Part shown: positions 3,581 through 7,455 of the stretch, piece by piece | Numbering within the stretch: the first letter of the stretch is position 1 | Layout: every line of letters starts with the position of its first letter | Assembly: GCA_963820625.1 (NCBI GenBank) | Contig: CAWGAV010000020.1 | Location: 138 to 64,137, forward strand | Source: an uncultured delta proteobacterium | GTDB taxonomy: Bacteria > Desulfobacterota > BSN033 > UBA1163 | DNA length: 64,000 nucleotides | Reading direction: 5' to 3' | The notes under the pieces: model-generated | The model's database searches: none | What the model was told of the DNA's origin: nothing | What the model saw: the letters and a program-made list of their open reading frames with translations, nothing else | Position numbers and translations under genes: made by a program

Positions 3581-5836
3581 ATGGAGATCAGAGGACAGCT
3601 CTTTGATCTTTATCCTCTGGAGTCTTCGATGATCCTGTGGATCAAGGAAGAGGATGGAAGGCTTCGCCGATTCGAAGATCTTTTCAGGCCTCGATTCTAT
3701 ACGCGGGGGAAAAAAAGTGATCTTTTCGATCTCTTCCACTCTCTTCAGAAAGGGCGGCGGGCAGCAGGATACCAGTGGACCAGAAAGAAGGAGCTCTGGA
3801 GTGGCGATGAAGTGGAAGTGATGGAGATCGAGGTTGTAGATTCGGAGCATTATGCCCAACTTCCCCGAATTCTCCCCCAATGGGAGGAGAAGATTACCTT
3901 TTACAATTGCGACATTCCTTTGCCACAGACCTATCTTTATGAAAGAAAAATCTTTCCGACAGGCCGATGCATTGTCGAGGTTGAAGGAAATCGGATCTTT
4001 GAAATTCATCCTGATCCATCCGAGTCTGTGTGGATGAACGATGGAGACATTCCCGACCTCCGGGTCATGGAACTTCACACCAATGGTAACTCTGTGCTTC
4101 TTGGTAGACAGACCCTGAACCGCTCTGGTTCAGGGCTCATACTGAAGTGCGAAGGGTATGGGGTGGAGATGGAGACGATCGATGTTGGAGAAATTGAGAA
4201 GTTTCTCAAACGTTTCGATCCTGATGTGATCCTGAGCGATGATGGGGATGCCTCTCTTTTACCCCTTCTCTTTTCGGCAGAGAAGAGATGGAAGACTTCC
4301 ATCTCCTGGGATCGGGAGCCTTACCCTGTGAAAAGGCAGGTTCATCCGAAAGGTTTTTCTTACTTCTCCTATGGCAGGACCTACTATCGGGCCCCTGCCC
4401 ATATTTTTCTGGGAAGATGGCACATCGATCGTAGAAACTCCTTCATCTATGGAGAATCGGGAATGGAAGGAGTGATCGAACTGGCACGATTGGCTAAAAT
4501 TCCAGTTCAACGGATGGCTCGGACTTCACCAGGAACAGCGATCACCTCGATGCAACTCGACCGGGCCTTTCAGGATGATATCCTCATCCCCTGGAGAAAG
4601 GGGGAACCGGAACGATTCAAGACGGCGTGGGATCTGCTCATTGCGGACAAGGGAGGTCTTGTCTTCCAACCTAAGCTGGGGATCTTTGAAGATGTAGCAG
4701 AGATTGATTTTGCCTCGATGTATCCTACCATGATGGCGATTCACAATATCTCTCCGGAGACCGTACTTTGTGGATGTTGTGAGAACCATAGGGTTCCGGA
4801 GGCTGGTTATACAATCTGTGAAAGACGAAAGGGAATCGTACCTAGAACCCTTAGTCCTATCTTAACGAGAAGAACTTGGCTCAAGAAAATGGCCAAGGAA
4901 GGAGATCCAGATAGAAGAGAAATCTGCAACCGGAAACAGACGGCACTCAAATGGATGCTCGTTACATCCTTTGGATATTTAGGTTATCGGAATGCTCGCT
5001 TTGGAAGAATCGAAGCCCATGAAGCGGTCACTGCCTTTGGGAGGGAAAGCCTCCTTCAAGCCAAGGAGATCTGTGAGGCGGAAGGGTTCGAACTTCTCCA
5101 TGCCATTACCGATTCCCTCTGGATTCGCAAGAAAGGATTCAGAGAGGAAGAGGTTCTTAATCTCTGCGAGAAGATCAGCAAGGCCACAGGGATCACGATG
5201 AGTCTGGAGGGAATTTATCGATGGATGGCTTTTCTCCCCTCAAAAGGGAACCCAGAAAGCCCGGTGGCCAACCGTTATTTCGGACTCTTCCAAAACGGAA
5301 AGATTAAAGCGAGGGGGTTATCCTTTCGGCGAGGCGATATGCCTCCTTTGATTCAAGAGGCTCAGGTTCGAATGATAGGGGTTTTGACAGGGACAAAGAA
5401 TATGGAGGATTTCCGGTCGAAGATCCCTGAGATTTTAGACCTTCTCCTCGAATATAGCCTGAAGTTGAAGGACGGCCAGACGAGGCAAGAGGATTTGGCT
5501 ATCGGGAAGAGAATTTCTCGGGAGCCTAATGCCTATAAAGTGGATAGCCTCACTGCTCTCGCCGCCCAACAGTTGGAAGATGTTGGAATCGAGATCCATC
5601 CCGGAGAGAAGGTTCGGTATGTGATCAAGGATGCCGAATCCAGGGATAAGGCGGAGCGAGTCAGGCCTTTCCCTTTAGTGGGGCCGGATGACACCTACGA
5701 TGTCAAAAAATATCTGGAGATGCTCGTGAAAGCAACCGAGGAGATATTGATCCATGTTGGCTATGATGCAAAACGCCTGTACCCCTTACTCTCCCTCTCC
5801 CCTGAGCGGGAGAGAGGAAGGGTGAGGGAAACTTGA
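3581..5836 (+). CDS. polB: family-B DNA polymerase, archaeal-PolB-like, exonuclease motifs degenerate
   Basis: Motif A is DFASMYPTMMAIHNISPET, motif B is KWMLVTSFGYLGYRNARFG, motif C is LLHAITDSL, and the KxY-like motif is ANRYFGL. Exo I position reads VMELHT (no DxE). Exo II reads DDGDASLL (no NxxxFD). Start moved to ATG 3581 (MEIRGQLFDL) because 3497-3580 is a REP element. The C-terminal tail (LSPERERGRVRET) is REP-derived. Confidence 0.85.
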   Translation: MEIRGQLFDLYPLESSMILWIKEEDGRLRRFEDLFRPRFYTRGKKSDLFDLFHSLQKGRRAAGYQWTRKKELWSGDEVEVMEIEVVDSEHYAQLPRILPQWEEKITFYNCDIPLPQTYLYERKIFPTGRCIVEVEGNRIFEIHPDPSESVWMNDGDIPDLRVMELHTNGNSVLLGRQTLNRSGSGLILKCEGYGVEMETIDVGEIEKFLKRFDPDVILSDDGDASLLPLLFSAEKRWKTSISWDREPYPVKRQVHPKGFSYFSYGRTYYRAPAHIFLGRWHIDRRNSFIYGESGMEGVIELARLAKIPVQRMARTSPGTAITSMQLDRAFQDDILIPWRKGEPERFKTAWDLLIADKGGLVFQPKLGIFEDVAEIDFASMYPTMMAIHNISPETVLCGCCENHRVPEAGYTICERRKGIVPRTLSPILTRRTWLKKMAKEGDPDRREICNRKQTALKWMLVTSFGYLGYRNARFGRIEAHEAVTAFGRESLLQAKEICEAEGFELLHAITDSLWIRKKGFREEEVLNLCEKISKATGITMSLEGIYRWMAFLPSKGNPESPVANRYFGLFQNGKIKARGLSFRRGDMPPLIQEAQVRMIGVLTGTKNMEDFRSKIPEILDLLLEYSLKLKDGQTRQEDLAIGKRISREPNAYKVDSLTALAAQQLEDVGIEIHPGEKVRYVIKDAESRDKAERVRPFPLVGPDDTYDVKKYLEMLVKATEEILIHVGYDAKRLYPLLSLSPERERGRVRET

Positions 5837-6024
5837 AGAATTAAATAGAAAAAGTAGATAAAGTTACCCCTTGTATAGTTAAGTTACTGGAGAATGATTG
5901 AAATCAGATGAATCTGGGTTGAAGATCTGAAGTTTAGCGATAACGCATCAAGTGTGTTATATTGATTCAAACCAATTTGTTTGTCAGAGATTCTGAGCCA
6001 ATCAAATTCTTAGGGGAGGAACCC

Positions 6025-6330
6025 ATGTTTGAGGTTTCGGAAAAGGCGACTGAGATGATCAAGGAGTCCTTCATAGATCAGGAGAAAATCCCATCCATCC
6101 GTGTGGCATTCAACGAGGGTGGCTGAATGGGGCCATCATTGGGCCTGGTTCAGGATGAACCGAGTGAAGATGACGAAGTTTTTACACAAGAAGGTGTCAC
6201 TTATCTTGTTAACAAAGACTTGTCTGAGCAGGTAAAGCCCATTAAGGTGGATTTTATCGATACGCCCAGAGGAGGCGGATTTTTCATTTTCTCCAATCTA
6301 GGGAAAGAATCCGGATCCTGTTGTTGCTAA
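6025..6330 (+). CDS. HesB/IscA-like protein with in-frame UGA (probable selenoprotein)
   Basis: ATG 6025 is preceded by GGAGG. Translation: MFEVSEKATEMIKESF..IRVAFNEGG-[TGA 6124-6126]-MGPSLGLVQDEP...GSCCC. The UGA sits where HesB/IscA proteins have the GGC(S)G cysteine. Tracked ORF 6127..6330 is in the same frame. Hairpin at 6146-6162. Confidence 0.7.
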
Positions 6331-6456
6331 AATGAGGGAGGGGAGAGAGCTTCAAGTTTCAAACGAAAAATTCTTTTCAAAAAGGTACAGCAGCCAAAAA
6401 AAATAGAACAATTTGATCTGCCTGCATCTATCCCCATCATGGAAGTGATCGCAACG

Positions 6457-7455
6457 CTACAACCTCACCAGATTGGCGCCATAAGTCAGGCCAGCTCCGA
6501 AACCGACAAGAATCACAAGATCCCCCGTCTGGAGCTTCCCTTCTCGAAAGGACTCATCAAGAGCGAGGGGAATGGAAGCTGTGGAGTTGTTCCCATACTT
6601 TTCAATCGTAACGATCATCTTATTTTTGACTGCCCCATCGGGAAGTTCGAGTCTGGATTCGAGATCCTCTGCAGCGCTTTTGATGATCCTTGCATTGGCC
6701 TGGTGGGGAATGATTTTTTTAACCTGATTGAGCAAGGCACAAAGCTCTTTTCTGCTGGCCGTCCCATCAGGATCAAGGACCCGCAGGCAGCTTTCCGCCA
6801 TAGCGCCTTTGGCGAAAGCGTAGACCTTTTTACCCTTCATCCACATGAATCGATTGCCATTGTCTTCATTCTTGCGAAGCACAATGGTATCCCGCGATTT
6901 GTATTCACCACCGAGATGGGATCGGATGATCCCTTCTTTAGCCCTCCGCTGTAATATCACGGCTCCTGCTCCGTCTCCAAAGAGGACGCACGTGTTTCTA
7001 TCCTTATAATTGGTGATAGCCGAAAGCTTGTCCGATCCGACCACAGCAACTGTTTTATGTTGCCCTGATTTTACAAATTGTTCTGCTACGGCCAGAGAAT
7101 AATTGAAACCGGTACACCCTGCCTGCAGATCAAAGAAAGGTATGTTTTTATGGAGATTGAGGAGATATGCGATGTGGCCCGCAGCAGAGGGCCACATCGG
7201 ATCAGTGGTATTGGTACCAACCACGAGCATCTCAATTTCTGTAGGGTCGATACGTGCATTTTCAATAGCCCTTTCAAGGGCAAGTCGGCCCATGGTGACG
7301 TTGGTTTCTCCTTCCGCTGCAATCCTTCGCTCACGGATGCCTGTCCTTTCCAAAATCCATTTGTCACTGGTCTCCACCATCTTTTCCAGATCGTGGTTTG
7401 TAAGGACCCTTTCTGGAACATAAGACCCCGTTCCAATAATTCCAACGTGATGCAT
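6457..7455 (-). CDS. fabH: 3-oxoacyl-ACP synthase III (KAS III)
   Basis: GTGSYVPERVLTNHDLEKMVETSDKWILERTGIRERR, active-site AGCTGF, and PHQANARII...YGNNSTASIPLALDE. Confidence 0.85.
   Translation of the reverse strand: MHHVGIIGTGSYVPERVLTNHDLEKMVETSDKWILERTGIRERRIAAEGETNVTMGRLALERAIENARIDPTEIEMLVVGTNTTDPMWPSAAGHIAYLLNLHKNIPFFDLQAGCTGFNYSLAVAEQFVKSGQHKTVAVVGSDKLSAITNYKDRNTCVLFGDGAGAVILQRRAKEGIIRSHLGGEYKSRDTIVLRKNEDNGNRFMWMKGKKVYAFAKGAMAESCLRVLDPDGTASRKELCALLNQVKKIIPHQANARIIKSAAEDLESRLELPDGAVKNKMIVTIEKYGNNSTASIPLALDESFREGKLQTGDLVILVGFGAGLTYGANLVRL

Follow-up and report, generated by a model that had tools for sequence, protein, structure and literature searches.

The frame at positions 6025-6330 on the forward strand of the window (the whole 64,000-nucleotide stretch of DNA analyzed here) is very probably an intact gene whose product, a 101-residue selenoprotein with the IscA/HesB fold of A-type Fe-S carriers, belongs to the family NF038090 and has selenocysteine (Sec) specified by the UGA at codon 34. 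The structure of the gene, its family, the exchange of Sec and cysteine at the UGA position among homologs, the selection acting on a hairpin downstream of the UGA, and the presence of the decoding machinery in the host genome are established by the data presented below. From these we infer that selenium is actually incorporated at the UGA in the host organism.

The coding sequence begins with an ATG at 6025, preceded at a gap of 5 nt by a Shine-Dalgarno-like GGAGG at 6015-6019 (+), both read directly from the sequence. It continues for 101 codons to a TAA at 6328-6330 and is interrupted by a single in-frame TGA at 6124-6126 (+; codon 34). Translated with TGA as U, the gene reads MFEVSEKATEMIKESFIDQEKIPSIRVAFNEGG, the TGA of codon 34, and MGPSLGLVQDEPSEDDEVF...GKESGSCCC, followed by the TAA. 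The residues around the recoded position are IRVAFNEGG-UGA-MGPSLGLVQDEP, with codons 32-37 spelling GG-U-MGP, and the GSCCC tail closes with three Cys codons at 6319-6327 (+; residues 99-101). The original prediction had described a GGAGG-preceded ATG opening a frame that runs past the UGA for another 67 codons to a CCC tail, and all of its coordinates hold; these 67 of the 101 residues lie 3' of the UGA. An ORF list made with translation table 11 sees two pieces only, 5962-6126 (54 aa) and 6127-6330 (67 aa). The second piece is ATG-started because of the UGA-AUG junction at 6124-6129. Methionine follows Sec in this genome only, its place being taken by Ser, Ala or Gly in about 70 homologs, and the ATG is at least two base changes away from the Ser and Ala codons of the relatives.

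The gene stands alone. An intergenic stretch of 188 nt (5837-6024) separates its start from the TGA stop (5834-5836) of an upstream putative polymerase gene, its downstream neighbor is fabH on the opposite strand, and it lies outside any isc or suf operon. A simple consensus scan of 5700-6600 returned neither a sigma-70-like promoter nor an intrinsic terminator. When gene neighborhoods were compared across 24 loci, nothing clustered except antisense shadow ORFs and the members of one clade, five loci that are nearly identical. The neighbors seen in the window are not common to other lineages, so gene context offers no clue to function.

Profile searches, for which Sec was read as Cys, clearly place the product in NF038090 (IscA_HesB_Se). 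The match is full length, with residues 1-101 covering all 101 profile positions, and scores 105.7 bits (E 1.3e-30) against a curated cut-off of 85; a six-frame search of the genome recovers it at 98.3 bits with one TGA inside the match. Both a UGA at the GG[U/C]xGP position and C-terminal cysteine, features of this family, are present, and PF01521 (Fe-S_biosyn) is matched at 30.6 bits, above its gathering threshold of 26.3. The gene had originally been linked to a HesB-like selenoprotein family represented in TIGRFAMs. That the family is a known one was borne out, but the TIGRFAMs model, TIGR01911 (HesB_rel_seleno), is not the one that fits: it gives a partial match over residues 4-75 that scores 34.2 bits where the cut-off demands 66.35, and we reject membership in it. 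The gene is a member of NF038090, and TIGR01911 is a sister subfamily of the same superfamily, likewise with Sec in place of the N-terminal ligand Cys. Scores also fall below the cut-off for TIGR00049 (47.8 bits against 58.8), and far below for the equivalog models of IscA, SufA and ErpA (15-31 bits against 65-181). In one relative, a more distant HesB-like subfamily, also with Sec, is represented by two nearly identical genes separated by about 5 kb (loci L029 and L032, on contig G020:C36); they score about 44 bits to NF038090, have the motif G*GGPRMG (the asterisk marking the TGA here and below) and form a stem with one A·C mismatch.

Structural comparisons agree with the family assignment. 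Among solved structures, Aquifex Aq_1857 (1nwb; E 9e-7) gives the best sequence match and E. coli IscA the next best, and residue 34 aligns exactly with the Cys of GGCSG in both. The GSCCC tail aligns with GSCGC of Aq_1857, which makes the Cys-Cys-Cys codons the counterpart of the C-x-C ligands of A-type carriers. We modeled the protein with AlphaFold2 from an alignment of 24 family sequences; the mean pLDDT is 85.8, with residues 96-101 below 50, so that the tail is predicted to be flexible or disordered. Foldseek searches with this model found the [2Fe-2S]-IscA structure 1x0g, E. coli IscA (1s98, 1r94) and SufA (2d2a) at TM scores of 0.70-0.76. All three ligand positions of the IscA fold (C-Xn-C-X-C) can be recognized: Sec34 occupies that of the first Cys, and the CCC tail corresponds to the C-G-C of 1nwb. 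In the 24-sequence alignment, the column of residue 34 is invariant and that of C99 nearly so. What sets the protein apart from the A-type carriers IscA, SufA and ErpA (PF01521; PDB 1x0g, 1s98, 2d2a, 1nwb), with which it shares fold and three-ligand layout (GG[C/U]xG plus C-terminal C-x-C), is Sec as the first ligand, an identity of only ~20-30%, and its scores under the TIGR00049 and equivalog cut-offs.

The in-frame UGA is not confined to this genome. In 40 related genomes searched at a match threshold of E <=1e-10, all 12 matches to NF038090 (from 11 genomes) contain exactly one in-frame TGA, always in the column GG*[S/A/G]GP. A wider sample of 401 genomes from the phylum has a family member above cut-off in 168 of them; by a hand count among 150 matches listed, 124 have one TGA and 26 have none. 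Alignment of the gene to Cys-containing homologs yields a clear Sec/Cys pair: 41 unique Sec forms of the phylum sample share a column of TGA in which 5 Cys forms, tandem paralogs among them, have TGC. The UGA had been predicted to occupy the cluster-ligand Cys of the GGC(S)G motif, and it aligns both with that Cys in IscA and Aq_1857 and with the TGC of the Cys paralogs. TGA also stands in this column in all of a further 28 homologs, which come from named Syntrophaceae, Syntrophales and Desulfobacterales MAGs, and it does so in every one of the ~70 homologs examined. Several genomes hold TGA and TGC copies in tandem, for example MQGG*SGPSLGLALDEP beside MQGGCSGAALGLALDEP, the Cys copies reading GGCSG. 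Such Sec/Cys paralogs lie 100-400 bp apart in other genomes of the phylum (loci L036, L037, L038, L039 and L044).

Had homologs ended at the UGA, the prediction of a selenoprotein would have failed; instead they read on in frame. The part downstream of the UGA contains invariant or nearly invariant columns (D44, E45, D50, L66, D76, G85 and C99). Compared with the nearest relative (79% identity), this part differs by 16 synonymous and 10 non-synonymous codon changes, mostly in third positions, and the part 5' of the UGA shows the same pattern of substitution. Coding thus continues in frame past the UGA under purifying selection.

The second line of evidence is the hairpin UGGUUC-AGGAU-GAACCG at 6146-6162 (+), composed of a 5' arm at 6146-6151, a loop at 6152-6156 and a 3' arm at 6157-6162. 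It starts 19 nt after the UGA, with its apical loop 25 nt after it. A recent review (PMC13188914, 2026) gives the constraints on bacterial SECIS elements (bSECIS) as a loop of 3-9 nt, a stem of 4-16 bp, a UGA-to-loop distance of 16-37 nt and a minimum free energy (MFE) of at most -7.5 kcal/mol, with a G at one of the first two loop positions in the usual pattern N1-G-[G/U]-N-N2 (PMC13188914). The hairpin in the window has a loop of 5 nt (AGGAU) with G at position 2, a stem of 6 bp (7 bp with A6152·U6156 as closing pair, which the MFE fold includes) and a spacing of 25 nt. Its energy lies close to the limit: the bare 17-nt hairpin folds at -6.5 kcal/mol, and only the addition of a few flanking bases, in a 25-nt segment, brings the local MFE to -8.0 kcal/mol. 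The hairpin resembles the E. coli fdhF-type SECIS (the consensus bSECIS) in that it follows the UGA closely within the coding sequence and has a small apical loop, a G in the first two loop positions and a spacing within 16-37 nt. It differs from the fdhF-type SECIS in that the predicted element has a short stem of 6-7 bp and no evident bulged U. Compatibility with a bacterial SECIS, as first proposed, is therefore upheld by these constraints and by the conservation and covariation described next.

Conservation of the hairpin alone could reflect the protein, because the stem encodes a conserved peptide, L-[V/A]-[L/Q]-D-E-[P/S]. Several observations point to selection on the RNA itself. Across 65 distinct sequences, 96.2% of cells are paired, and sliding the 3' partner by 1-3 columns lowers pairing to 17-55% (whole tested structure, 65 sequences). 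Stem pair 4 (columns 29-39) is C-G in 56 of these sequences and U-A in 9, with no breaks; in the set of 41 the counts are 34 and 7. The U-A pair goes with GUU (Val) and GAA (Glu) and the C-G pair with GCU (Ala) and GAG (Glu), so that on the 3' side only the wobble base of a Glu codon changes, synonymously. The wobble U of in-stem codon 9, which is needed for pairing, is found in 41/41 Sec forms and in 0/5 Cys forms (GCC in four, ACG in one). LALDEP is also the peptide of the tandem Cys copies, but they spell its Ala GCC, which breaks the SECIS stem. Of six possible stem pairs, Sec forms make 5.83 on average, their synonymous-codon shuffles 3.52 and the Cys paralogs 4.0. The window sequence taken alone forms 6/6 pairs, a value reached in 3.9% of its synonymous shuffles, and the covariation score was reached by none of 500 shuffles; the sequences are related, so these shuffle counts are not probabilities. 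The contrast between Sec and Cys paralogs is the more telling control. The hairpin at 6146-6162 is under RNA-level selection, kept in place by synonymous codons that are not chosen in the Cys paralogs, and RNAalifold predicts it as the sole consensus structure. A TGA column shared by ~70 homologs, together with a hairpin conserved with covariation, is far beyond chance. We make no claim for a GC-rich helix further upstream (6131-6135 with 6141-6145) as part of the SECIS: it is 76% paired with many broken cells, is absent from the RNAalifold consensus, and probably arises as a side effect of Gly-Pro and Leu-Gly codons. A gathering-threshold Rfam scan of the whole window gave 0 matches, a result that says nothing about this SECIS.

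The host genome, an assembly of 35 contigs that is ~71% complete, encodes the machinery that a selenoprotein needs. A genome without it would have spoken against the original prediction; selA (622.8 bits), selB (370.8), selD (360.2) and a tRNA-Sec (81.4 bits) with anticodon UCA are all present, each exceeding its cut-off. A tRNA scan of the window itself found none, the tRNA-Sec being located on another contig, about 2.4 kb from selA (G000:C13:82267-86171; loci L001 and L011). The selB gene is found on a different, short contig (C34), and selD (G000:C7:41676-42515; locus L007) encodes a selenoprotein in its own right, its frame containing a TGA at KKAG*ASKVGP.

It is conceivable that the UGA at 6124 mostly or always stops translation and that the AUG at 6127 restarts it, producing a 33-residue peptide and a 67-residue C-terminal fragment, or, in a variant, that such fragments are made alongside the Sec protein, for instance under selenium limitation. 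The direct adjacency of UGA and AUG, confined to this genome, and the ATG-started ORF at 6127-6330 in the table 11 list would fit such an arrangement, and bacteria are not known to insert Sec with full efficiency. Against it stand an intact SECIS hairpin with 6/6 pairs, a full set of Sec machinery in the genome, and purifying selection that is equal upstream and downstream of the UGA. No homolog is split at this point, and according to the AlphaFold2 model a product initiated at 6127 would lack the first beta-strands, helix 1 and the Sec/Cys ligand, thus losing half of the IscA fold. On balance we regard termination followed by re-initiation as very improbable.

The TGA could also be a nonsense mutation or a miscall in a Cys-type HesB gene, leaving a truncated, non-functional product, and an assembly in 35 contigs at ~71% completeness leaves some room for error. 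The same column, however, holds TGA in ~70 independent genomes, the downstream frame is intact and conserved, and the Sec forms preserve the hairpin through codon choices of their own, so that a pseudogene or assembly error is extremely improbable. Reassignment of UGA throughout the genome, as to Trp in code 4 or Gly in code 25, could likewise account for the open frame itself and for nothing else. TGA serves as the stop of 14/32 long ORFs in the window, including the putative polymerase gene at 5834-5836, the aligned residue in homologs is Cys and not Trp or Gly, and a dedicated tRNA-Sec(UCA) is present with selA, selB and selD. Stop-codon usage in the window effectively refutes genome-wide recoding, to which we assign a negligible chance.

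Recoding of the UGA as Sec, the reading that we favor, would proceed by the steps of established bacterial Sec decoding. SelD would make selenophosphate, with which SelA would turn Ser-tRNA(Sec) into Sec-tRNA(Sec). A SelB·GTP·Sec-tRNA(Sec) complex would then bind the hairpin at 6146-6162 as the ribosome arrives at the UGA, and SelB would deliver Sec at 6124 in competition with release factor 2 (RF2). In the finished protein, Sec34 would stand in for the first of the three ligand cysteines of an A-type carrier, the Cys-Cys-Cys tail supplying the others. Like its homologs IscA and SufA, the protein may, as a dimer, use Sec34 and the C-terminal cysteines to coordinate the Fe or Fe-S cluster that it transfers. 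As a ligand, a selenolate would be more nucleophilic than a thiolate and have a lower pKa. Most likely, the HesB-like protein binds and passes on Fe or an Fe-S cluster with a selenolate ligand, or uses that ligand in a related thiol/selenol-based transfer.

The HesB-like gene is the only PF01521-type match in the assembled host genome. Canonical IscA, SufA and ErpA were found neither there nor in 40 relatives, of which 20 are >=90% complete, and the PF01521 matches in these relatives are HesB-like genes only. As the host genome is ~71% complete, statements of absence cover only what was assembled. The family is patchy, occurring in 13/41 genomes, and looks accessory rather than essential. One could speculate that the Sec protein is the only A-type-carrier-like protein of the lineage and that the UGA-AUG junction turns the locus into a dual-output gene, with a selenium-independent 67-residue product made when selenium is scarce; we give this combination little credence, at much the same level as termination and re-initiation.

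All of these results describe an ordinary member of a published family in an expected lineage. The HesB-like selenoproteins (the bacterial family NF038090; Zhang, Gladyshev and colleagues; PMC1794560, PMC13188914) counted 11 members in 2006 and were listed for Syntrophus aciditrophicus, Syntrophobacter fumaroxidans, Desulfovibrio and Geobacter sulfurreducens (PMC1794560); they share the motif UxGP (PMC13188914). Among bacterial selenoprotein families, HesB-like ranks with the commoner ones. The gene in the window matches the family model in full and above cut-off, with the UxGP motif, Sec at the first ligand-Cys position, a Gly-rich C-terminal tail with Cys, a SECIS hairpin inside the coding sequence just downstream of the UGA, and a host among the anaerobic, selenoprotein-rich Desulfobacterota/Syntrophales. 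It departs from the majority of the family in having Met after Sec, a loop of AGGAU and not UGGAU, a stem with GUU/GAA and not GCU/GAG, and CCC at its tail. For the sister subfamily TIGR01911, the model cited in reviews, there is experimental precedent: it includes the HesB-like protein of Methanococcus maripaludis, in which selenium incorporation was verified by 75Se labelling (PMC11097638). A disruption mutant in M. maripaludis had no nitrogen-fixation defect, a result cited as an unpublished observation (PMC11097638). Since HesB-like selenoproteins have been published in Syntrophus and Syntrophobacter, and the nearest relatives of the window are Syntrophaceae and Syntrophales MAGs, the finding is already known.

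In summary, there is nothing new in kind here: the family, its UxGP motif, the type of SECIS and its occurrence in syntrophic Deltaproteobacteria have all been published, and a curated NCBI model recognizes the gene. The main value lies in annotation, where standard gene callers split or truncate this gene and the correct call is one 101-residue selenoprotein. A by-product is a clean example of RNA-level selection within a coding sequence, in which the Sec forms of the family fix GCU for Ala and couple Val/Ala (GUU/GCU) with Glu (GAA/GAG), while adjacent Cys paralogs encoding the same peptide do not.
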